This document shows positions 3,017 to 34,895 of a stretch of 64,000 bases of DNA, in pieces. The position numbers and the translations under genes were made by a program. Within the stretch, counting starts at the first letter, position 1. The number at the start of each line of letters is the position of its first letter. The DNA is from Escherichia coli (GTDB lineage: Bacteria > Pseudomonadota > Gammaproteobacteria > Enterobacterales > Enterobacteriaceae). The notes beneath the pieces were generated by a model, which saw nothing but the letters and a program-made list of their open reading frames with translations, searched no databases and was not told where the DNA came from. The stretch lies in the NCBI RefSeq assembly GCF_017348835.2, contig NZ_CP071375.1; one strand, given 5' to 3'.

Positions 3017-4053
3017 TTTTGTTCCTGTTCTTCGCGCTTGCGTTCTGCTGCCAGCGCCGCTTTACGTTTTTGTTCTGCTTCTTCCCAGGCTTCATAAGCG
3101 TTAACGATACGCGCCACCACCGGGTGACGAACCACGTCTTCGCTGTGGAAGAAGTTAAAGCTGATCTCTTCGACATCGGCCAGCACTTCAATGGCATGAC
3201 GTAAGCCTGATTTAGTATTACGCGGCAGGTCGATCTGTGTGACGTCGCCGGTGATAACCGCTTTTGAGTTAAAACCGATACGGGTCAGGAACATCTTCAT
3301 CTGTTCGATGGTGGTGTTCTGGCTCTCATCGAGAATGATAAAGGCGTCATTCAGCGTACGACCACGCATATAGGCCAGCGGTGCGACTTCAATAACGTTG
3401 CGCTCAATCAGTTTCTCGACTTTCTCAAAGCCCAGCATTTCAAACAGCGCGTCGTACAGTGGGCGCAGATACGGGTCTACTTTCTGGCTTAAATCGCCAG
3501 GCAGGAAGCCCAGTTTCTCACCGGCTTCTACTGCCGGACGAGTCAGCAGAATACGGCGAATTTCCTGACGCTCCAGGGCATCAACTGCTGCAGCCACTGC
3601 CAGGTAGGTTTTACCCGTACCCGCCGGGCCAACGCCGAAGGTAATGTCATGGTCGAGAATATTGGCGATGTACTGCGCCTGGTTTGGCGTGCGCGGCTTA
3701 ATTACGCCGCGTTTGGTTTTGATATTGACCGCTTTGCCGTACTCCGGCACGCTCTCCGCGCTTTGCTCCAGTACCCGTGCTTCTTTAATCGCAAGGTGGA
3801 TCTGTTCCGGTTCGATATCCTGAATCTGACCGCGCATCGGGGCAGTATCGACATACAGGCTACGCAGAATGTCTGCCGCAGCGGTGACGCAAATCGGACG
3901 GCCGGTCAGTTTAAAGTGGTTATCGCGGCGATTGATCTCGATGCCGAGACGGCGTTCGAGCTGCTTGATGTTGTCATCAAACGGGCCGCACAGGCTCAAC
4001 AGACGCGCATTGTCTGCTGGCTCCAGGGTGATTTCGCGAGTGTCTATGTTCAA
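3013..4053 (-). CDS. ybeZ: PhoH-like ATPase YbeZ
   Basis: Walker A GPAGTGKT; the ORF track gives 359 aa, but the conserved N-terminus [12 protein letters not shown] is recalled from E. coli YbeZ and corresponds to a TTG at 4053-4051 preceded by a GAGGAA Shine-Dalgarno, giving 346 aa. Confidence 0.85.
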
Positions 4054-5630: not shown

Positions 5631-5775
5631 CGACTTGCTCTTGCGAAATAGTAGCCAGGAATGCAGGGCGCATAGTGTAATGCTTTGCTGCCGTTGTGAC
5701 CAGTATGAGCGTTATCAGCCCTTAGGGGTAAAAATCCTGTAAACTTAAAGCATATTGCTAACAGGATGATTGACC

Positions 5776-6951
5776 ATGACAAATCAACCAACGGAAATTG
5801 CCATTGTCGGCGGAGGAATGGTCGGCGGCGCACTGGCGCTGGGGCTGGCACAGCACGGATTTTCGGTAACGGTGATCGAGCACGCAGAACCTGCACCGTT
5901 TATCGCTGACAGCCAGCCGGATGTGCGGATCTCGGCGATCAGCGCGGCTTCGGTATCATTGCTTAAAGGGTTAGGGGTCTGGGATGCAGTACAGGCTATG
6001 CGTTGCCATCCTTACCGCAGACTGGAAACGTGGGAGTGGGAAACGGCGCATGTGGTGTTTGATGCTGCTGAACTAAAGCTGCCGCTGCTTGGCTACATGG
6101 TGGAAAACACTGTCCTGCAACAGGCGCTGTGGCAGGCGCTGGAAGCGCATCCGAAAGTAACGTTACGTGTGCCAGGCTCGCTGATTGCATTACATCGAGA
6201 TAATGATCTTCAGGAGCTGGAACTGAAGGGCGGTGAAACGATCCGCGCGAAGCTGGTGATTGGTGCCGACGGCGCAAATTCGCAGGTGCGGCAGATGGCG
6301 GGAATTGGCGTTCATGCCTGGCAGTATGCGCAGTCGTGCATGTTGATTAGCGTCCAGTGCGAGAACGATCCCGGCGATAGCACCTGGCAGCAATTTACTC
6401 CGGACGGACCGCGTGCGTTTCTGCCGTTGTTTGATAACTGGGCATCGCTGGTGTGGTATGACTCTCCGGCGCGTATTCGCCAGTTGCAGAATATGAATAT
6501 GGCACAGCTCCAGGCGGAAATCGCGAAGCATTTCCCGTCGCGTCTGGGGTACGTTACACCGCTTGCCACTGGTGCGTTTCCGCTGACGCGTCGCCATGCG
6601 TTGCAGTATGTGCAGCCAGGGCTTGCGCTGGTGGGCGATGCCGCGCATACCATCCATCCGCTGGCGGGGCAGGGGGTGAATCTTGGTTATCGTGATGTCG
6701 ATGCCCTGATTGATGTTCTGGTGAATGCCCGCAGCTACGGCGAAGCGTGGGCCAGTTATCCTGTCCTCAAGCGTTACCAGATGCGGCGCATGGCGGATAA
6801 CTTCATTATGCAGAGCGGTATGGATCTGTTTTATGCCGGATTCAGTAATAATCTGCCGCCGCTGCGTTTTGTGCGTAATCTTGGTTTGATGGCGGCGGAG
6901 CGTGCTGGCGTGTTGAAACGTCAGGCGCTGAAATATGCGTTAGGGTTGTAG
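5776..6951 (+). CDS. ubiF: 3-demethoxyubiquinol 3-hydroxylase UbiF (FAD monooxygenase)
   Basis: FAD-binding GxGxxG (IVGGGMVGG); the ORF track starts at TTG 5770, while the ATG at 5776 gives the recalled N-terminus MTNQPTEIAIV (391 aa). Confidence 0.9.
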   Translation: MTNQPTEIAIVGGGMVGGALALGLAQHGFSVTVIEHAEPAPFIADSQPDVRISAISAASVSLLKGLGVWDAVQAMRCHPYRRLETWEWETAHVVFDAAELKLPLLGYMVENTVLQQALWQALEAHPKVTLRVPGSLIALHRDNDLQELELKGGETIRAKLVIGADGANSQVRQMAGIGVHAWQYAQSCMLISVQCENDPGDSTWQQFTPDGPRAFLPLFDNWASLVWYDSPARIRQLQNMNMAQLQAEIAKHFPSRLGYVTPLATGAFPLTRRHALQYVQPGLALVGDAAHTIHPLAGQGVNLGYRDVDALIDVLVNARSYGEAWASYPVLKRYQMRRMADNFIMQSGMDLFYAGFSNNLPPLRFVRNLGLMAAERAGVLKRQALKYALGL

Positions 6952-25875: not shown

Positions 25876-25895
25876 ACACATTAAATAATAAATAT

Positions 25896-25919
25896 CCTCC
25901 GGCATAGCCGGAGGTTTTT
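25896..25919 (+). terminator. pgm intrinsic terminator
   Basis: Hairpin ctccggc-ata-gccggag followed by a T5 run, 20 bp after the pgm stop. Confidence 0.65.
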
Positions 25920-26600
25920 CAAATGCGCCTATAAGGCTCTCTTACCAGCCGCGCCCTAACAGGCGCACACGATCTGACATTTGCATCCAACTTCGTTACT
26001 TACGGCCCGTAAACGGGCTGCCCGGATAGGGAATCGATAACTGCTCTACCATTTTATCCTCTTCAAGCTGGTGCTTTATGTAATCCTGTATCTTCGCCGT
26101 GTTCTTACCCACTGTATCGACGTAGTACCCTCTGCACCAGAACTCCCTGTTCCTGTATTTGAATTTCAAATCACCAAACTGCTCGTAAAGCATCAGACTG
26201 CTTTTCCCTTCCAGATATCCCATAAAGCCGGATACGCTCATTTTGGGCGGGATCTCCACAAGCATATGGATATGATCTGCACAGCATTCAGCTTCCAGAA
26301 TCCGTACACTTTTCCACTCACACAGCTTTCTCAAAATACTGCCTATTGCTCTACGCTTCTCTCTGTAGAACACCTGTCTTCGATATTTTGGCGCAAAAAC
26401 TATGTGATATTTACAGTTCCATCGGGTGTGCGCTAAGCTCTTTTCGTTCCCCATTGGGACCCCCTTTTGATTTCTTGTTTGACACTTGCAGTTGCCAGAC
26501 CGCAAGGTGTTTTAACAAATCAAAAGGGGTTTTAATAACTGGCTCAAAGCTGAAAGCTTTCCGGAACCCCCAGCCTAGCTGGGGGTTTTCTGTGCACAAG
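25920..26600 (-). mobile_element. IS200 insertion sequence (IS200/IS605 family); ends approximate
   Basis: Contains a 152-aa HuH tyrosine transposase and the characteristic IS200 5' leader hairpins; boundaries estimated to about +/-30 bp from the flanking pgm and potE terminators. Confidence 0.8.
25996..26454 (-). CDS. tnpA: IS200 transposase TnpA (HuH Y1 transposase)
   Basis: 152 aa from ATG 26454 (MGNEKSLAHTRWNCKYHIVFAPKYRR...) with HuH motif HIHML and catalytic Tyr in RGYYVDTVG; near-identical to the Salmonella IS200 TnpA from memory. Confidence 0.9.
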   Translation of the reverse strand: MGNEKSLAHTRWNCKYHIVFAPKYRRQVFYREKRRAIGSILRKLCEWKSVRILEAECCADHIHMLVEIPPKMSVSGFMGYLEGKSSLMLYEQFGDLKFKYRNREFWCRGYYVDTVGKNTAKIQDYIKHQLEEDKMVEQLSIPYPGSPFTGRK

Positions 26601-26631
26601 AAAAAGGGCGGTCGCAAGATCGCCCTTTTTT
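26600..26631 (-). terminator. potE-speF operon intrinsic terminator
   Basis: Hairpin gggcggtcgc-aa-gatcgccc with a U-run on the minus-strand transcript, 12 bp 3' of the potE stop. Confidence 0.7.
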
Positions 26632-26642
26632 ACTTTGCTTTT

Positions 26643-27962
26643 TTAACCGTGTTTATTTTTCAGTTCAAAGCGTGGTGATACCAGACCATACAGTGTCCAA
26701 CCGAGGAAGGTCACGATAGAACCGTACAGCATGGCTTCTTCCCCGGATGAGTACAGCGCATAGAAACTGTACATCGCGCCAACAAAAGCAACAAAGTTTG
26801 CAACTTTCGCTTTTGAGGGGGGCACATTAGCGACCTTTTGAATAATGACTAATGCCGCCATTGACAGAATATACGGAATGATATTGGTCACCACGGCCAG
26901 GTTAACCAGCACGTTGAACTGACTGTTTAGCGACGGGCTAATCGTCATCAGCGCCAACCCGCTCTGGATAATCACAATGGTCAACATTCCCTGCACCGGT
27001 GCATCCACTTTGGTTACACGGGAGAAAATTTTAGGGAAGTAGCCTTCATCAGATGAAGATTTAAACACCTGGGCAATGGTGAACTGCCAGCCAAGTAGCG
27101 AACCGCAGCAGGACATCACCATCAGCGCCATAATGACTTTACCCACTTCCGGCGTGAACATCTGCGCGAAGGCCAGACCAAATGGTGCCGTTGAATTTGC
27201 CAGCTCCATATTTGGCACAATCCCGGCAATCACGTTGGTGGAGACGATATAAATCACCGCCGCACCTAACGTACCGCCGAGTACCGCGATTGGCACATTA
27301 CGTTCCGGGTTTTCCACTATATCAGTATTTGCACACGCAGACTCCAGACCAAGAAAAGCCCACAGCGTCATAGCGATGGAAGAACCTACCGCACTGAAGA
27401 ACGGTGCATGATGCGGATTCCAGGAATCAACGTACAGCGTCGGGCTAAACCAGAACCAGCCAATAATGCACAGACCGACGACCGGAATAATGACCCCCCA
27501 CACGGTAATGCTACTGATTTGCCCGGTAATGCGCGCACCACCAAAGTTAGCCACGGTACAAATCCACAGCACCCCGATGGTCGCAAGACCAATCTGCACT
27601 GGCGACAAACTCGCGCCGAGCAGTTCGGTGCCGTAACCAACCGCCGAAATAGCAATCGCGACGTTAGCAATCAGCAGTGAGACGCCGTAGGTATAGTTCG
27701 CCATAAAGTTACCGGATTTACCGAAAGCATACTCGGCATAACCGCCCATACCGCCTGATTTACGGCTGAACATACCGCATTTTGCGAATGCCCATGCCAG
27801 TGCCATTGAGCCTACGGCTGTCACCAGCCAGGAGATAATTGAGATTGTCCCGACTTCGGCAAGCTTTGTCGGCAGCATGATGATACCGGAGCCCATCATG
27901 TTGACCATCGTCAGTATGGTTAACTGAACGACGCCCATTTTGTTCGATTTAGCCTGACTCAT
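26643..27962 (-). CDS. potE: putrescine-ornithine antiporter
   Basis: 439-aa APC-family transporter with 12 predicted helices; recognised as PotE; 4-nt overlap with the speF stop. Confidence 0.95.
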   Translation of the reverse strand: MSQAKSNKMGVVQLTILTMVNMMGSGIIMLPTKLAEVGTISIISWLVTAVGSMALAWAFAKCGMFSRKSGGMGGYAEYAFGKSGNFMANYTYGVSLLIANVAIAISAVGYGTELLGASLSPVQIGLATIGVLWICTVANFGGARITGQISSITVWGVIIPVVGLCIIGWFWFSPTLYVDSWNPHHAPFFSAVGSSIAMTLWAFLGLESACANTDIVENPERNVPIAVLGGTLGAAVIYIVSTNVIAGIVPNMELANSTAPFGLAFAQMFTPEVGKVIMALMVMSCCGSLLGWQFTIAQVFKSSSDEGYFPKIFSRVTKVDAPVQGMLTIVIIQSGLALMTISPSLNSQFNVLVNLAVVTNIIPYILSMAALVIIQKVANVPPSKAKVANFVAFVGAMYSFYALYSSGEEAMLYGSIVTFLGWTLYGLVSPRFELKNKHG

Positions 27963-30157
27963 AATTTTTCCCCTTTCAACAGGGTGCTTTGCGCATCACG
28001 AGGCTTGATGACATAGCACCAAACTTGCTTACGACCATCATGTTCTTCGATATAGACACCCTGCAGCTCCGGTGCAAAACCTGGCAGCAGGTTGATCCCT
28101 TCTTCCAGAGCGCTGAAGTAACGCAGAACAGCACCACCCCAGATTTCACCCGGAACAACACACAGCACACCCGGAGGATAAGGAAGCGCACCTTCGGCAG
28201 CGATACGGCCTTCTGCATCCGGCAGACGAACCAGTTCCACTTCACCGCGTAAATAGGCGTAGTTGGCTTCTTGCGGATTCATGCTGACGCGTGGGAAGTG
28301 CTCCTTACGGAACATCTCTTTTTGCAGTTGTTTCACGTTGTGGCGGGCATACAAATCATGCATTTCCTGACACAACTGACGCAGGGTATAACCGGCGTAG
28401 CGCTCTTCATGCTGTTTGTAGATGGAAGGTAGCACTTCTGCTAATGGCGCGTCGGACTCAAGCAGTTTTTCGAAGCGTACCAGCAGGGCAACAAGTTGCT
28501 GAAGTTTGGCCATATCTTCTGCCGGAGTCAGCAGGAAGAGGATGGAGTTAAGATCGCATTTTTCCGGCACTACGCCATTTTCGCGCAGGAAGTTAGCAAG
28601 AATCGTCGCGGGTACACCGAACGCTTCATATTCGCCGTTACGTGCATCAATACCTGGGGTTGTCAGCAACAGTTTGCATGGATCGACAAAGTATTGATTC
28701 TCTGCATAGCCTTCAAAAGAATGCCAGTGTTCCCCTGGTACAAACTGGAAGAAGCGCAGATCAACCGCAATTTGCGCTGTTTCATACGACTGCCAGGGTT
28801 TACCATCCACCAGTTCAGGTACGAACGGACGAATATGCTGACAGTTATCGAGGATCAGTTTGCGGGCATTAATGCCATTTACCACACAATCCATCCACAT
28901 ATTACGACCGCTGACACCTTCATGCATTTTGGCGTTGATATCCAGTGCGGCAAACAGCGGATAGAACGGGCTGGTGGAGGCGTGCATCATAAAGGCGTTG
29001 TTCATGCGTTTGTGCGGTACATAACGCTGTTGCCCTTTGATGTGGCTGTCTTTTTTATGAATTTGTGAAGTCTGAGAAAAACCAGCCTGTTGTTTATGCA
29101 CAGATTGCGTAACCAGAATACCCGGATCGTTCTCATTAAGTTCCAGTAGCAGCGGCGAACAGTCCGCCATCATCGGAATAAACTGTTCATAGCCGACCCA
29201 TGCTGAGTCAAACAGGATGTAGTCACACAGATGACCAATTTTATCCACCACCTGGCGGGCGTTATAAATCGTACCGTCGTAGGTGCCTAACTGAATCACA
29301 GCGAGGCGGAAAGGACGAGCCTCTTTTGCCCGCTGCGGTGCGACTTCCGCGATCAGCTCACGCAGGTAACTTTCTTCAAAACAGTGCGCATCAATGCCAC
29401 CGATAAAGCCATACGGGTTACGTGCCGTTTCCAGATAAACCGGTGTTGCACCAGCCTGTAGCAACGCTCCGTGGTGGTTAGATTTGTGGTTATTGCGATC
29501 AAACAGCACCAGATCACCCGGTGTTAGCAGGGCGTTTAAAACCACTTTGTTAGAAGATGAAGTGCCATTTAGAACGAAGTATGTTTTATCTGCATTAAAC
29601 ACTTTTGCCGCATGTTGCTGTGCAATGCATGGCGCGCCTTCGTGAATCAGCAGATCGCCCATTGCCACATCCGCGTTGCATAAGTCGGAACGGAACAGCG
29701 TTTCTCCGAAGTACTCCACGAACTGATTCCCTGCCGGATGACGACGGAAAAACTCACCTCCCTGATGACCCGGGCAGTCAAAAGCGCTATTGCCCTGATT
29801 GACATAATCGACCAGTGCGCGGAAGAAGGGCGGGCGCAGTTGCGTTTCATAATGGCTGGCAGCGGTTTCTAACTGACGTCCATAAAACTCTTTCCGTGAT
29901 TCGCAATGCTCGAAGACACCAGAAATACGTGGCAGATATTCTGCTGGTACACGTTCTTCATTTTCCGTTGCAATAAAAACAGGAATACCATAGCCAGTAG
30001 CGTCTATTTCATCGAGTTTTCCACGTTCAACATCACTGACTGATAAAATAATGGCGGCAACGTCAATATAATTACTTTCGTCTATATTCACGCATGCACG
30101 ATGAGTGGAAAAACAATCCGGGCAAGAACGACTAACGGCAATTTTTAATTCTGACAT
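27959..30157 (-). CDS. speF: inducible ornithine decarboxylase (PLP-dependent)
   Basis: Recognised as SpeF; two in-frame ATGs (30166 and 30157); the second gives the recalled 732-aa protein starting MS-LKIAVSRS. Confidence 0.93.
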   Translation of the reverse strand: MSELKIAVSRSCPDCFSTHRACVNIDESNYIDVAAIILSVSDVERGKLDEIDATGYGIPVFIATENEERVPAEYLPRISGVFEHCESRKEFYGRQLETAASHYETQLRPPFFRALVDYVNQGNSAFDCPGHQGGEFFRRHPAGNQFVEYFGETLFRSDLCNADVAMGDLLIHEGAPCIAQQHAAKVFNADKTYFVLNGTSSSNKVVLNALLTPGDLVLFDRNNHKSNHHGALLQAGATPVYLETARNPYGFIGGIDAHCFEESYLRELIAEVAPQRAKEARPFRLAVIQLGTYDGTIYNARQVVDKIGHLCDYILFDSAWVGYEQFIPMMADCSPLLLELNENDPGILVTQSVHKQQAGFSQTSQIHKKDSHIKGQQRYVPHKRMNNAFMMHASTSPFYPLFAALDINAKMHEGVSGRNMWMDCVVNGINARKLILDNCQHIRPFVPELVDGKPWQSYETAQIAVDLRFFQFVPGEHWHSFEGYAENQYFVDPCKLLLTTPGIDARNGEYEAFGVPATILANFLRENGVVPEKCDLNSILFLLTPAEDMAKLQQLVALLVRFEKLLESDAPLAEVLPSIYKQHEERYAGYTLRQLCQEMHDLYARHNVKQLQKEMFRKEHFPRVSMNPQEANYAYLRGEVELVRLPDAEGRIAAEGALPYPPGVLCVVPGEIWGGAVLRYFSALEEGINLLPGFAPELQGVYIEEHDGRKQVWCYVIKPRDAQSTLLKGEKL

Positions 30158-30312
30158 TTTGTTCATCTCTTTATTTCAGGTAATAGCAGGTCCTCAATTT
30201 CTCAAAGGAGAAATCGATCACGCCGGAAAAAAAGCAAAGCTCCACCGCTGATAAATAAATCAGTAGTTTGCTTTTTGCAGATGCAATAACCCAGACCAGC
30301 CCGGTAACTGGC

Positions 30313-30488
30313 TATACTCGTCATACTTCAAGTTGCATGTGCTGCGTCTGCGTTCGCTCACCCCAGTCACTTACTCATGTAAGCTCCTGGGGATTCACTC
30401 GCTTGTCGCCTTCCTGCAACTCGAATTATTTAGAGTATATACTCGTCATACTTCAAGTTGCATATGCTGCGACTCGAATTATGTAGAG
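30313..30488. repeat. ERIC (enterobacterial repetitive intergenic consensus) element with a partial tandem duplication
   Basis: Core at 30355-30398 contains both ERIC PCR primer sequences (reverse complement of AAGTAAGTGACTGGGGTGAGCG, then ATGTAAGCTCCTGGGGATTCAC); full palindromic unit about 30313-30440; the left arm (30313-30346) is repeated at 30438-30471 with one mismatch. Confidence 0.8.
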
Positions 30489-30592
30489 TTTAAAAGGGTT
30501 AGCAGTATATGAGCACCGAGGGATACAGGTATTAACCTGTAATGCTTAAAGTCAGGGAGACCTGTACGCTGGGGTGCCCTTTAGTCAGAAGA

Positions 30593-30697
30593 CTAGCGGG
30601 CATTAAAGAAATGAAAGTCAAAACTATTACGATGGGCAAACTTCATGATATGGGTTGTCCGCCTTATATGAGGCATTAAGCGGTTATTATTTTCCAT
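30593..30697 (-). CDS. speFL: speFL ornithine-sensing arrest leader peptide
   Basis: 34-codon ORF MENNNRLMPHIRRTTHIMKFAHRNSFDFHFFNAR ending in TAG; matches the described SpeFL arrest peptide. Confidence 0.8.
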   Translation of the reverse strand: MENNNRLMPHIRRTTHIMKFAHRNSFDFHFFNAR

Positions 30698-30892
30698 TTA
30701 CCTTTACCTCTTGCTGTGTCAGTTGAAGGTAGAGTTATTCTATCCATGAAATGGCTATAATCTGTGAAGAAGATCAACAAAAAACGATCATACCCCAGAT
30801 AATAAATCATTAATTATGAATAGCGCCATATTAGACGCTGTTTTGTTATTTAAATGTTGTAATTTTGTGTTTTATATTTGCGTTAAGAAATT

Positions 30893-30926
30893 AAACCTGC
30901 CAAATAATAATATTTGGTGCAGGTTT
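30893..30926 (-). terminator. probable kdpE terminator hairpin
   Basis: Imperfect hairpin aaacctgccaaata / tatttggtgcaggttt about 45 bp 3' of the kdpE stop, U-rich tail on the transcript. Confidence 0.5.
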
Positions 30927-30971
30927 AATAATAAATTAATCACTATTTAAGCGAATTTATTGAATAACAAT

Positions 30972-31649
30972 TCAAAGCATAAACCGATACCCAATACCGG
31001 TTTCAGTAATGAAATGGCGGGGGCGAGCGGGATCCTGTTCCAGTTTTTGTCGCAGATGTCCCATATAAATACGCAAATAATGACTGTGTTCGACCGCGTT
31101 TGGCCCCCACACCTGGTTAAGGAGTTGGCGCTGGGGGAGTACTTTTCCGGCGTTGTTGAGCAGCACTGCCAGCAGGCGAAACTCAATCGGGGTGAGGTGC
31201 ACCTCTTCCTCACCCCGGTGAATCACGCGGGCGGCTAAATCGACGGTAACATCGGAAAATTTCACTACCGGATCGGGCGCGGCAGTGGCTGAATGGCGGC
31301 GTAATGCGACGCGCAGACGGGCCTGCAATTCGCCAATGCCAAACGGCTTACTCAGATAATCATCCGCTCCGGCATCCAGCGCGGCGATTTTGTCGCTCTC
31401 TTCGCTGCGTGCGGAAAGCACTATCACCGGCACCGCGCTCCACTGGCGCAGGTCGCGGATAAACTCAATCCCATCACCATCGGGCAGGCCGAGATCGAGA
31501 ATAATCAAATCTGGCTTACGGGTTGCCGCTTCCAGCAAGCCGCGTTGCAGCGTTTCGGCCTCAAAGACGCGCATACCGTCGCCCTCCAGCGCCGTGCGCA
31601 GAAAGCGACGAATAGCCTGTTCATCTTCAACAATCAGAACGTTTGTCAC
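30972..31649 (-). CDS. kdpE: response regulator KdpE (OmpR family)
   Basis: 225-aa receiver plus winged-helix protein; the start codon is GTG at 31649, embedded in ATGTGA with the kdpD stop. Confidence 0.95.
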   Translation of the reverse strand: MTNVLIVEDEQAIRRFLRTALEGDGMRVFEAETLQRGLLEAATRKPDLIILDLGLPDGDGIEFIRDLRQWSAVPVIVLSARSEESDKIAALDAGADDYLSKPFGIGELQARLRVALRRHSATAAPDPVVKFSDVTVDLAARVIHRGEEEVHLTPIEFRLLAVLLNNAGKVLPQRQLLNQVWGPNAVEHSHYLRIYMGHLRQKLEQDPARPRHFITETGIGYRFML

Positions 31650-34330
31650 ATATCCTCATGAAATTCTTCAAGTTCAGGGGCAGTTTGCTGGGGAAGTGTA
31701 ACACGAAAACAGGCACCACCTTCCGGTCGGTTGAACGCGGTAATAGTGCCCCCGTGTACATCCACTATCTCCCGACAAATTGCCAGTCCAAGCCCTACCC
31801 CCGGTACTGCCGACTCTTTATTCCCGCGAGCAAACTTATCAAATATCGTCTGCTCCTGGCCTGGCGGAAGACCGGGGCCGTTATCCCAGACATCCAGTTG
31901 TAGATTTTCGCCCTCAACGTGGGCATCGATACCAATTTCGGCCTGCGCACCCGCATATTTCACCGCGTTCTCCAGCAGATTAATCAGCACCCGTTCAAAG
32001 AGTGGCCCGTCAACGTGGATTAAGGTCAGCGGTTCTGGCAGAGAAAGATTGATGGGCGACGATAAACCCGGTTCCAGCATTTGCAGCGCGCTGCCGACCA
32101 CTTCTTCCAGCGTTAACCACTCTTTCTTCAAATTAAAGCCGCCGGACTGAATTCGCGCCATATCCAGTAGATTATTCACCAGTCGGGTAGTGTTCAGCAC
32201 GTGCTGACGGATCTCGCTGGCCTGGCGGGCGTGGGGTGATCCTTCGCTTGCCAGATCGAGCGTTAAGATTTCTGCCTGACCAAACAGCACCGTAAGCGGA
32301 GTGCGTAAATCATGCGAAAGCGCCGCCAGCAGGGCGTTACGGATCTGTTCACGTTCGCTTGCCATCCGCGCCTGTTCTTCGCTGGCGGTCAGCGTCAGCC
32401 GCTCAAGCGCATTGGCGACTAACAGCGTAAACGTCTCCAGCAGGCGCTGCTGTTCCGGGATCATCAACTGACGCAGATTCCCCGGTTCCACCACCACCAG
32501 CCCGTAGGTTTTCTCACCGCTTTTTAACGGCAAAATCTGGTACGGCACGCCGGGTAACGTGTCGGTGCCCGCACCCGCAGGCAGGCCTTTATCAAAACTC
32601 CACTGCGCGATGGCATCGTCCCACGGCGTCATTCCTTGCGGATGTGTTAACGGCTGCAATTTACCGTTGTCATCGGGCAACAACACCTGACTGCGGGCAT
32701 GAAACGTGGAGGCAATAAATTGTTCGCTGGTGGCGGCGATGTCCTGCGGACTGCGGCCCACCGCCAGAGCTTTCGACATTTCATATAAGTGCCGTGTGCG
32801 TTGCTCGCGGTAACGGGCTACCCGCGCCTGATAACGCACACCCGCAGTAAGGTTCCCGATCACCAGCCCGACGGTTAACATCACCGCGAAGGTCAGCAGA
32901 TATTGCACATCAGAGACGGCGAGCGTGCCGCGTGGGGCGATAAAAAAGAGATCGAAACTCACCACATTAATGACGGTAGCAACCACCGAAGGCCAGCGTC
33001 CATAAAATAGCGCCACCACCACCACGCCAAGTAGATACAGCATCACCAGGTTGGCGGCATCAAACGCCATCAGCCACTGCATGGCAATTAAGGTGATAAC
33101 GGCGCATAACGCGGCGGCAACCACGCATCCCTGAATCTGTACCCGCCACTTGTCTTTAAAAGAGCGGCTATCCGGCGCGTTGTTAATCGTGCGGGCGGGT
33201 GGTTCATCAAGCGCGACCAGAACCTGATCGAGATCGGGGGCGATGCGCGCCAGCCGGTCAGCAAACGTTTCCCGACGCCACCAGCGGCGCGAGGCTGGGC
33301 GACCGAGAATAATCTTACCGAGATTATGTTCACGGGCATAACGCACTACCGCTTTCTCTTCCGCTGGATCAGAAAGTGTTGCCGTCTCCGCGCCCAGCTC
33401 CTGCGCCAGACGTAAGGCGCTGAGAATTGCCCGACGTTTTTTCTCCGGTAAGCGATGCAGGGCAGGGGTTTCAACATACACCGCGTGCCAGACGCTCCCC
33501 AGCCGTGACGCCAGCCGCGCCGCCGCGCGGACCAGTTTTTCGCTGCCGGTGTTATGGCCGATGCATAAAAGGATCGCGTCGCGCGTGTGCCAGACTTTCT
33601 CTTCGCCAGGATGCCCCCGCCAGGCGCGCATTTGCTCATCAACGCGATCGGCAGTACGGCGCAGTGCCAGTTCGCGCAGGGCGATCAGATTGCCTTTGCG
33701 GAAAAAATGTTCAATGGCGCGCTCCGCCTGCCCGGCAATATAGACTTTGCCTTCTTTCAGCCGCTGGCGCAGATCGTCCGGGGGCAAGTCCACCAGAACC
33801 ACGTCGTCGGCGGCATCGAAAAAAGGATCGGGCACGGTTTCCCGTACCTGAATTCCGGTGACGCCGCTGACCACATCATTCAGGCTTTCCAGATGTTGAA
33901 CGTTGACGGTAGTGAAAACATCAATACCAACTTCCAGCAGTTCTTCGATATCCTGCCAGCGTTTGGGATGACGGGAACCTGGCGCATTACTGTGCGCCAG
34001 TTCGTCCATTAAGATCAGCGCCGGGCGGCGGGCGAGGGCGGCATCGAGATCAAACTCGCTTATATGCCGCCCACGGTACGCCTGGCGTTTTAACGGCAGA
34101 ACAGCCAGCCCTTCCAGCATGGCGGCGGTATCTTTTCGCCCGTGGGTTTCTACCACGCCAACCACAATATCCAGCCCTTGCGCCCGCAGTCGCTGGGCTT
34201 CTGCCAGCATCGCCCAGGTCTTCCCGACGCCTGCGCAGGCACCGAAGAAAACTTTCAGCTTCCCCCGATGCGGCGCGGCAGTTTGTTCCAGCAGACGATC
34301 GGGGTCGGGACGTAAGGGTTCGTTATTCAT
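31646..34330 (-). CDS. kdpD: sensor histidine kinase KdpD
   Basis: 894 aa from ATG 34330 ([14 protein letters not shown]); KdpD N-terminal domain, four TM helices and a HisKA/HATPase core; start overlaps the kdpC 3' end by 8 nt. Confidence 0.93.
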
Positions 34331-34895
34331 CAAGTTTATCCAGCGCCAGATTGAGTTCGACAATGTTGACGATCGGCTGGCCGATATATTTCACCAGTGG
34401 TTGTTGGCTGTATTTTGCGATCAGTTGCGTGAGCTGTTCAACGCTGAGATTACGCGCTTTCGCTACGCGTGGGATCTGCCAGGCCGCCGCTTGTGGGGTG
34501 ATGTTATTGTCCAGCCCGCTTGCCGACGCCGTCACCAGTTCAACCGGAACGTTCGCGCTGGCATCCGGGTTAGTGGCCCGTAATGCAGCAACGCGTGCGG
34601 CTATTAGTTTATTCAGCTCAGGGTTACTGACTGCCAGATTGCTCCCGCCAGAAGCCTGTGGATTATAGGGCATTTCTGCCGTTGCCGACGGGCGACCATG
34701 AAAATAGCCGTTGCCGGTAAAATTCTGCCCGATTAATGCCGAACCGCGCACCGTATCACCTTCACGAATCAACGAACCATTGGCCTGCCAGGGAAACCAC
34801 CATTGCCCCAGCACGGTGGTCAGCAGCGGGTAAACGCCGCCAGTAATCAATAACAGAAAGATAAATGTCGATAATGCCGGACGTAATCCACCCAT
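34323..34895 (-). CDS. kdpC: K+-transporting ATPase subunit C
   Basis: 190 aa from ATG 34895 ([16 protein letters not shown]), single N-terminal TM helix. Confidence 0.9.

Follow-up and report, generated by a model that had tools for sequence, protein, structure and literature searches.

The 34-codon ORF on the minus strand at positions 30593–30697 of the window, the 64,000-nucleotide stretch of Escherichia coli DNA analysed here, is by its sequence speFL. In the E. coli speF–potE operon this leader gene senses ornithine and thereby turns on the synthesis of putrescine. From the sequence and its comparison with solved and experimentally studied homologues, we estimate with a probability of about 0.9 that this leader works as described for K-12 and Salmonella, and that a block of ERIC (IRU) units between speFL and speF is a tolerated, near-neutral passenger. 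The gene is already known, as are its mechanism and its annotation at the locus. Mildly new are a rare tandem-ERIC allele, the series of spacer alleles to which it belongs, recurrent ERIC insertion across genera and the standing of the K-12 haplotype as a minority one.

Locus and identity of the leader ORF

The gene order at the locus is kdpE–speFL–speF–potE, with kdpD also upstream. speFL, speF and potE are co-oriented, with speFL directly upstream of speF–potE, and speF starts at the ATG at 30157 with MSELKIAV. The features of the operon and of the predicted promoter region are as follows.

30593–30697, minus strand: speFL, with ATG at 30697–30695 and TAG at 30595–30593 (PDB match, Pfam PF10940, RefSeq annotation)
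27959–30157, minus strand: speF, inducible ornithine decarboxylase, 732 aa (TIGR04301, 1435.8 bits, cutoff 1310; RefSeq)
26643–27962, minus strand: potE, putrescine–ornithine antiporter, 439 aa (NF007938, 855.9 bits; RefSeq)
30701–30710, minus strand: putative Shine–Dalgarno region of speFL, GAGGTAAAGG, ending 3 nt 5′ of the ATG (read from the sequence)
30730–30742, minus strand: predicted −10 box TAGAAT (30742–30737) and transcription start site near 30730 (by alignment with the Salmonella leader)

The ORF encodes the peptide MENNNRLMPHIRRTTHIMKFAHRNSFDFHFFNAR, followed by TAG. The preliminary description had given a 34-codon ORF and its translation; both agree with ours, the coordinates 30593–30697 are exact, and the strand, which it left unstated, is minus. 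Because short ORFs are common by chance here, with 19 of at least 20 aa overlapping the 1 kb at speFL, the length of the ORF is by itself uninformative, and the case therefore rests on sequence identity and conservation.

The peptide matches the SpeFL chain of PDB entries 6tbv/6tc3 with E = 1.7e-18 and 32 of 34 residues identical, S5N and T7L being the sole differences between the window and K-12 SpeFL. It is found by Pfam PF10940 (SpeFL) at 27.9 bits (E = 2.1e-6; gathering cutoff 25 bits), while an NCBIfam HMM search with the same peptide returned no family. K-12 SpeFL itself (5719–5823 of its locus, L002, minus strand) scores 23.8 bits, under the 25-bit threshold, so that the founding member would escape its own Pfam model. 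An 881-nt region is 100% identical to E. coli strains PE164 and F2_81, in which the gene carries the RefSeq annotation “speFL: leader peptide SpeFL” (WP_001312672.1), and an exact-sequence look-up places both the window and the K-12 variants on at least 1,000 contigs each, under the names leader peptide SpeFL or DUF2618. At the codon level, the window and K-12 differ by 11 synonymous and 2 non-synonymous changes, as expected of an ORF that is translated and under constraint. The earlier assignment as speFL thus holds: the same peptide is annotated as SpeFL in RefSeq, and the downstream genes score as SpeF and PotE.

The position of the putative Shine–Dalgarno region matches the AGGA marked as such in Salmonella orf34, whose mapped transcription start puts the AUG at +32 (PMC6386406). 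A scan for promoter consensus sequences made no call at the speFL promoter, and the predicted start site comes from homology only. RefSeq also places a 44-aa ‘hypothetical protein’, WP_001299172.1, at 30676–30810 on the minus strand, overlapping the speFL start and promoter. Its frame begins upstream of the predicted transcription start, and Pfam and NCBIfam searches with it found no family. Conservation of the promoter DNA lets a similar sequence appear in Citrobacter loci, where it spuriously extends the speFL frame, and WP_001299172.1 is probably an annotation artefact.

Two further differences from K-12 were seen around the operon. In the pgm–potE interval (25893–26602) the window is without the K-12 ybfP–ybfG–ybfI segment, and in its place is a 169-aa ORF (25996–26505, minus strand) that matches Pfam Y1_Tnp at 127 bits, an IS200-like tyrosine transposase that is possibly REP-associated. 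On the other side, the kdpE–speFL intergenic DNA upstream of about 30790 gives no alignment with K-12. The hairpin AAACCTGCACCAAATATTATTATTTGGCAGGTTT, followed by a T-rich run at 30885–30925 (minus strand), is probably the kdp operon terminator, with a sequence unlike that of K-12.

Conservation of the sensor peptide

In the solved structure, the ornithine pocket is formed by P9, R12 and R13 with 23S rRNA, and HIRRXXH at residues 10–16 makes up the recognition loop; the effector core consists of F20, F28, F30 and F31 packed around F26, and N32 displaces U2585 so that RF1 is unable to act at the UAG stop (10.1101/604074). Stalling is abolished or severely impaired by mutating H10, I11, R12, R13, H16, F26, F28, F30 or F31, and is lost when residues 1–7 are deleted (10.1101/604074). 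P9, H10, I11, R12, R13, H16, F20, F26, F28, F30, F31 and N32 are the same in the window peptide as in K-12, P9 and the HIRRTTH loop are those of the solved chain, and the UAG stop directly follows residue 34, as in K-12. The preliminary description had claimed conserved C-terminal residues, which is borne out at F20, F26, F28, F30, F31 and N32, and an intact sensing module. Alignment with published SpeFL sequences finds no change at pocket, tunnel or mutationally tested residues, and the module accordingly appears intact as far as its sequence can tell.

Using the SpeF N terminus as an anchor, we retrieved 80 Enterobacterales loci, and a SpeFL ORF lies at the same place upstream of speF in 76 of them. 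Residue conservation was counted over 31 distinct 34-aa peptides, the window peptide included. Eighteen positions are invariant (M1, E2, N3, N4, P9, H10, I11, R12, R13, H16, M18, R23, F26, D27, F28, H29, F31 and N32), among them all of P9, H10, I11, R12, R13 and H16. In the N-terminal hairpin region, the length is kept and M1, E2, N3 and N4 are invariant, with positions 5 and 7 differing from K-12. At position 5, 24 peptides have N and 7 have S; variability is greatest at position 7, where L is the commonest residue (7/31). The window therefore has the states that are commonest across Enterobacterales, and K-12 has less common ones. Both S5N and T7L lie in the N-terminal hairpin needed for stalling, where harm from point changes is unreported, and their location would count against intact function. 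Salmonella orf34, with N5 and F7, is a functional ornithine-responsive leader (PMC6386406).

Four loci (L076, L079, L083 and L084) have a SpeF-like N terminus (64–67% identity) and no ORF with the SpeFL motif within 1.5 kb upstream; these genes may be paralogous decarboxylases or speF under other regulation.

RNA elements of the leader

Every sequence element required by the published mechanism is present in the window leader. The elements other than the peptide itself are listed here.

30659–30664, minus strand: rare Arg codons of R12 (AGG, 30664–30662) and R13 (CGG, 30661–30659), from the codon listing
30575–30602, minus strand: pause hairpin UGCCCGCUAGUCUUCUGACUAAAGGGCA, which holds the speFL 3′ end and the UAG stop (RNAfold; 10.1101/604074)
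30604–30626, minus strand: predicted 5′ arm of a long-range helix, speFL codons ~24–31 (MFE fold)
30144–30173, minus strand: predicted 3′ arm of the long-range helix, over the speF Shine–Dalgarno sequence and the ATG at 30157 (fold and duplex)
30525–30540, minus strand: conserved small spacer hairpin ACAGGUUAAUACCUGU (alignments)

The AGG–CGG pair, which helps to expose the rut site (10.1101/604074), is preceded by a rare Ile codon, ATA (I11), and the three codons are identical to those of K-12 and to those of 37 of the 78 sequences examined. The pause hairpin has an RNAfold energy of −15.8 kcal/mol in the window and −15.2 kcal/mol in K-12, and when the 69 distinct orthologous segments are folded one by one, the speFL stop codon is paired in 50. 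RNAalifold gave no consensus for the 69-sequence pause-hairpin alignment, which a few divergent outliers disturbed; per-sequence folds were used in its place, and we therefore claim no formal covariation statistics. From mid-speFL to ~100 nt past the stop (leader nt 61–270), C exceeds G with a C/G ratio of 1.3–1.9, and likewise in K-12. By this composition, the window leader appears to retain a rut-like C-rich region, to which Rho would bind.

The predicted duplex between speFL and the speF ribosome-binding site (RBS) reaches −19.5 kcal/mol in the window (z = −3.1) and −18.1 kcal/mol in Salmonella (z = −3.4), as opposed to −8.9 kcal/mol in K-12 (z = −0.7). In Salmonella, compensatory mutations validated a helix between nt 99–125 of orf34 and the ribosome-binding region of speF (PMC6386406). 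The small spacer hairpin is ACAGGCAUAUGCCUGU in K-12, its stem differing from that of the window by paired changes, and its loop is the point of ERIC insertion in other genera.

Tandem ERIC units in the spacer

The distance from the end of the speFL stop (30593) to the speF ATG (30157) is 435 nt, exactly the spacing that had been given approximately in the preliminary description, and the same as in the 100% identical RefSeq strain, where speFL is at 3284–3388 and speF starts at 3824. The K-12 spacer is 257 nt, by our alignment and as published (10.1101/604074), and the additional 178 nt of the window form one block that begins ~100 nt after the stop. This block consists of two units.

~30437–30492, minus strand: short ERIC-derived unit, 53 nt, with both ERIC ends kept and ~72 central nt deleted
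~30313–30440, minus strand: full-length ERIC, a ~125-nt imperfect palindrome, TATAC...GTATA (primer matches; nhmmer E = 4.5e-36)

The short unit, which nhmmer matches to the ERIC right end, is directly followed by the full ERIC. The earlier attribution of the long spacing to an ERIC element was right in that the extra nucleotides are ERIC-derived, and needs amending in that there are two tandem units, short and full, not one. The element at 30313–30440 was recognised with the ERIC1R and ERIC2 primer sequences, which we take to be those of Versalovic et al. 1991. ERIC1R matches at 30377–30398 with 0 mismatches and ERIC2 at 30355–30376 with 1; each primer matches once in the 64 kb and never in 100 shuffled sequences. 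The block as a whole (30316–30495) folds at −67.9 kcal/mol (z = −7.9) into two self-contained hairpins, and E. coli genomes have a median of ~12 places that match a query containing the ERIC.

An Rfam search over the region gave sub-threshold matches only, to V_AS5 (46.3 bits, cutoff 96, at 30317–30440) and isrH (26.4 bits, cutoff 45, at 30438–30494). Both coincide with ERIC units and were rejected as sRNAs, being read as cross-matches to repeat sequence. A consensus scan of the coding strand at 30100–30700 detected no terminator-like or promoter-like site. A literature search for ERIC together with speF returned no relevant paper, its coverage of the literature being incomplete.

Spacer alleles and haplotypes in E. 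coli

An ERIC-free query was compared with 5,426 complete E. coli genomes, and speFL was found in 5,044 of them. About 3,334 of these (about 66%) are at least 95% identical to the window haplotype, and ~1,702 genomes carry a K-12-type haplotype with 81.5% identity to the window. The window SpeFL allele is thus the majority E. coli allele, and K-12 has a minority, more divergent haplotype. The remaining 382 genomes (~7%) have no match to the leader query, which suggests that the speFL/speF region is absent or replaced in them.

Tandem units were counted with a query spanning the junctions, at a minimum of 80% query coverage. This query was covered in 34 genomes, and the short-plus-full structure is present in 32 of the 5,426. 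Five spacer alleles were found in E. coli, all differing at a single spacer site.

257 nt: no ERIC; K-12 type
310 nt: short ERIC unit; most window-type genomes, O157:H7 included
381 nt: full ERIC only; NCTC9112
435 nt: short and full ERIC; the window plus 31 further genomes, with NCTC10444, KV7 and PE164 as examples of strains
487 nt: short, short and full ERIC; DCE7

A diverged remnant of ~50 nt occupies the same site in E. albertii and E. coli E69, in spacers of 304–307 nt, which makes the short unit old. The full copy may have arisen by insertion at a TA beside the short unit or by unequal recombination.

Two deeply divergent E. coli haplotypes exist at 29500–34400, a segment comprising the 5′ part of speF, speFL, kdpE and kdpD. 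Identity between the window and K-12 is 81.5% across speFL plus 100 nt (237 nt) and 90.9% from speFL through kdpE/kdpD; it is ~85.6% in the first 600 nt of speF, and 96.3% when speF–potE is taken whole. Divergence of this order is genus-level, here within one species. Among the species sampled, the window haplotype is nearest to E. albertii (~89%), and the K-12 haplotype is at most 85.6% identical to any. Import of the K-12 haplotype from Citrobacter was considered and dropped, its identities to Citrobacter (85.1–85.6%) and to the window (83.6%) being too close.

Leaders in other genera and related systems

In other genera, speFL–speF spacers cluster at 252–260 nt, with further classes at 304–330 nt and ~357–381 nt, and the 435-nt spacer of the window is longer than every one in the 76 other-species loci examined. 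A bona fide ERIC is present in the speF leader of Citrobacter (2 loci), Kluyvera (2) and Pluralibacter, with nhmmer E values of 1e-32 to 1e-36. In these five loci (L006, L011, L029, L030 and L036) it sits in the loop of the ACAGG...CCTGT hairpin, ~40–80 nt past the stop, and not at the E. coli site. With ERIC insertions across genera at two sites, the leader region repeatedly tolerates insertions and is a recurrent ERIC target.

Salmonella enterica subsp. diarizonae and arizonae (L019 and L020) have spacers of 378–379 nt, with a ~122-nt insert at the hairpin-loop site (nt ~60–185). This insert is part of the ‘ring’ that Ben-Zvi et al. examined (PMC6386406) and was recognised neither by blastn nor by the ERIC nhmmer profile. 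The idea that the long Salmonella spacer reflects an ERIC at the E. coli site was dropped on these negative searches and on the different site. Long spacers are also carried by loci L022 and L067.

The closest characterised system is K-12 SpeFL (b4803; PDB 6TBV/6TC3; 10.1101/604074), which has the same kdpE–speFL–speF–potE locus, a 34-aa peptide, the ATA–AGG–CGG codons, the UAG stop and the pause hairpin in common with the window; the window differs from it by S5N and T7L, by a spacer of 435 rather than 257 nt and by stronger predicted RBS pairing. Salmonella orf34 (PMC6386406) is the orthologous 34-aa ORF, MENNNRFMPHIRRTTHIMMFAHRNSFDFHFFNAR in the Salmonella loci fetched. With the window it shares N5, AGG–CGG, the hairpin over the stop, a long spacer and the helix in which the 3′ part of the ORF pairs with the speF RBS, and it differs in F7 and M19 and in having its extra spacer DNA in the ACAGG/CCTGT hairpin loop. 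TnaC, the tryptophan-responsive leader of the tna operon, resembles SpeFL in that a free amino acid blocks release of the leader peptide, masks rut and prevents Rho termination (10.1101/604074). It is an analogue and not a family member, having an unrelated sequence and another ligand; it acts at a UGA stop and inhibits RF2 (PMC8450073). Like other ERICs (IRUs), which are imperfect palindromes of about 127 bp, the full copy here is such a palindrome, of ~125 nt, transcribed and intergenic and of a kind that is multi-copy in E. coli. Its setting is distinct, as it stands in tandem with a deleted 53-nt copy inside a characterised attenuator leader.

Proposed mechanism and alternative readings

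Ornithine-dependent, puromycin-insensitive ribosome stalling at codons 33/34 and Rho-dependent control of speF have been demonstrated in K-12 and Salmonella only (10.1101/604074; PMC6386406), and the structure and the long-range helix also come from work on those systems; at the present locus, we observe sequence identity, conservation and the retention of elements. If the window allele behaves like its counterparts, transcription would start ~33 nt upstream of the speFL AUG, and RNA polymerase would pause at the hairpin that holds the speFL stop codon. At low ornithine, a ribosome would terminate at the UAG and depart, the slow, rare R12–R13 codons would delay the ribosomes that follow, and the C-rich rut region overlapping speFL would be exposed, allowing Rho to terminate transcription ~20 nt past the stop, as at about +157 in Salmonella (PMC6386406). 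At high ornithine, one L-ornithine would be trapped between 23S rRNA and the sensor (P9, R12, R13 and the HIRRTTH loop), upon which the Phe-rich C-terminal domain would compact, U2585 would be displaced and RF1-mediated peptide release would be blocked. Rho would then be unable to load because stalled and queued ribosomes cover the rut site, and the stalled ribosome would also prevent the speF RBS from being sequestered by the 3′ part of speFL. With rut masked and the RBS freed, speF–potE would be transcribed and translated.

The same codons invite another reading, which we hold to be a real possibility, if somewhat short of an even chance, namely that the leader uses ribosome speed at R12–R13 to sense arginine, mainly or in addition, as an extra layer atop ornithine capture. 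In Salmonella, high arginine leads to uninterrupted translation and a fold degraded by RNase G, and low arginine leads to pausing at the Arg codons and a resistant fold (PMC6386406). The window has the conserved AGG–CGG pair, a predicted Salmonella-like long-range helix and a homologue of the ring segment with the RNase G site, all of which agree with such a layer. Arginine sensing was demonstrated, however, in Salmonella only, whose ring differs by the ~122-nt insert, the ERIC block alters the ring further in the window allele, and the E. coli study ascribes the rare codons to exposure of the rut site (10.1101/604074).

In the preferred reading, ornithine capture controls Rho termination as in K-12 and Salmonella. 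The E. coli ERIC site is ~80 nt downstream of the Rho point mapped in Salmonella and inside the loop of the long-range helix (the ‘ring’). Being downstream of the decision point, the block should not affect the attenuation decision, and since it also folds on itself, it is probably a tolerated passenger. Spacers of ~357–381 nt are natural in other genera, Salmonella included, where regulation works. Neutrality seems likelier than a regulatory effect. The block (about −68 kcal/mol) ends ~25–50 nt upstream of a segment homologous to the Salmonella RNase G target, and because of this proximity an effect on mRNA decay or on the kinetics of RBS sequestration is conceivable; the rarity of the tandem allele (32/5,426) is also consistent with a mild cost.

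Taken further, this consideration gives a reading that we judge unlikely, in which the sensor is intact and the tandem block alters speF–potE output by way of mRNA stability (RNase E/G access), the rate of the RBS helix or residual downstream Rho termination. The 257/310/381/435/487-nt series would then be a natural expression-tuning polymorphism. The existence of a length series of ERIC units at one E. coli site fits with it, as do the hits to the same leader at another site in Citrobacter, Kluyvera and Pluralibacter and the strong structure of the block (z = −7.9). From work on Yersinia, De Gregorio and colleagues in 2005 reportedly found that transcribed ERICs can change mRNA decay in an orientation-dependent manner, which would point the same way. 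So would the placement of the block a short way 5′ of the counterpart of the RNase G target, nt 388–400 in Salmonella (PMC6386406). Against this reading, the insertion comes after the Rho decision point of Salmonella, the 310- and 435-nt alleles do not differ in their predicted pause hairpin and long-range helix, and the scan of the leader detected no new terminator or promoter consensus. More doubtful still is the wider proposal that the copy-number series, together with the independent insertions in Citrobacter, Kluyvera and Pluralibacter, serves to tune speF–potE mRNA stability or translation after the ornithine/Rho decision; if true, ERIC elements would be modular regulators of acid- and ornithine-induced putrescine synthesis. 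That the ORF is a chance or decayed frame, functionless in this strain, is very improbable: the abundance of short ORFs and the lack of an NCBIfam match would allow it, but the match to solved SpeFL and to Pfam, retention of the ORF in 76 of the 80 loci, 18 of its residues being invariant, the excess of synonymous codon changes and the intact start, Shine–Dalgarno region, stop and downstream speF–potE all speak against it.

Significance

[quoted passage not shown] The window-type allele is nearer to the family consensus than that of K-12, and nearer to Salmonella in the predicted RBS-sequestering helix. The repeated acceptance of ERIC units marks a structurally dispensable part of the attenuator leader, and the spacer alleles of E. 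coli are natural material for asking whether transcribed ERICs affect gene expression.
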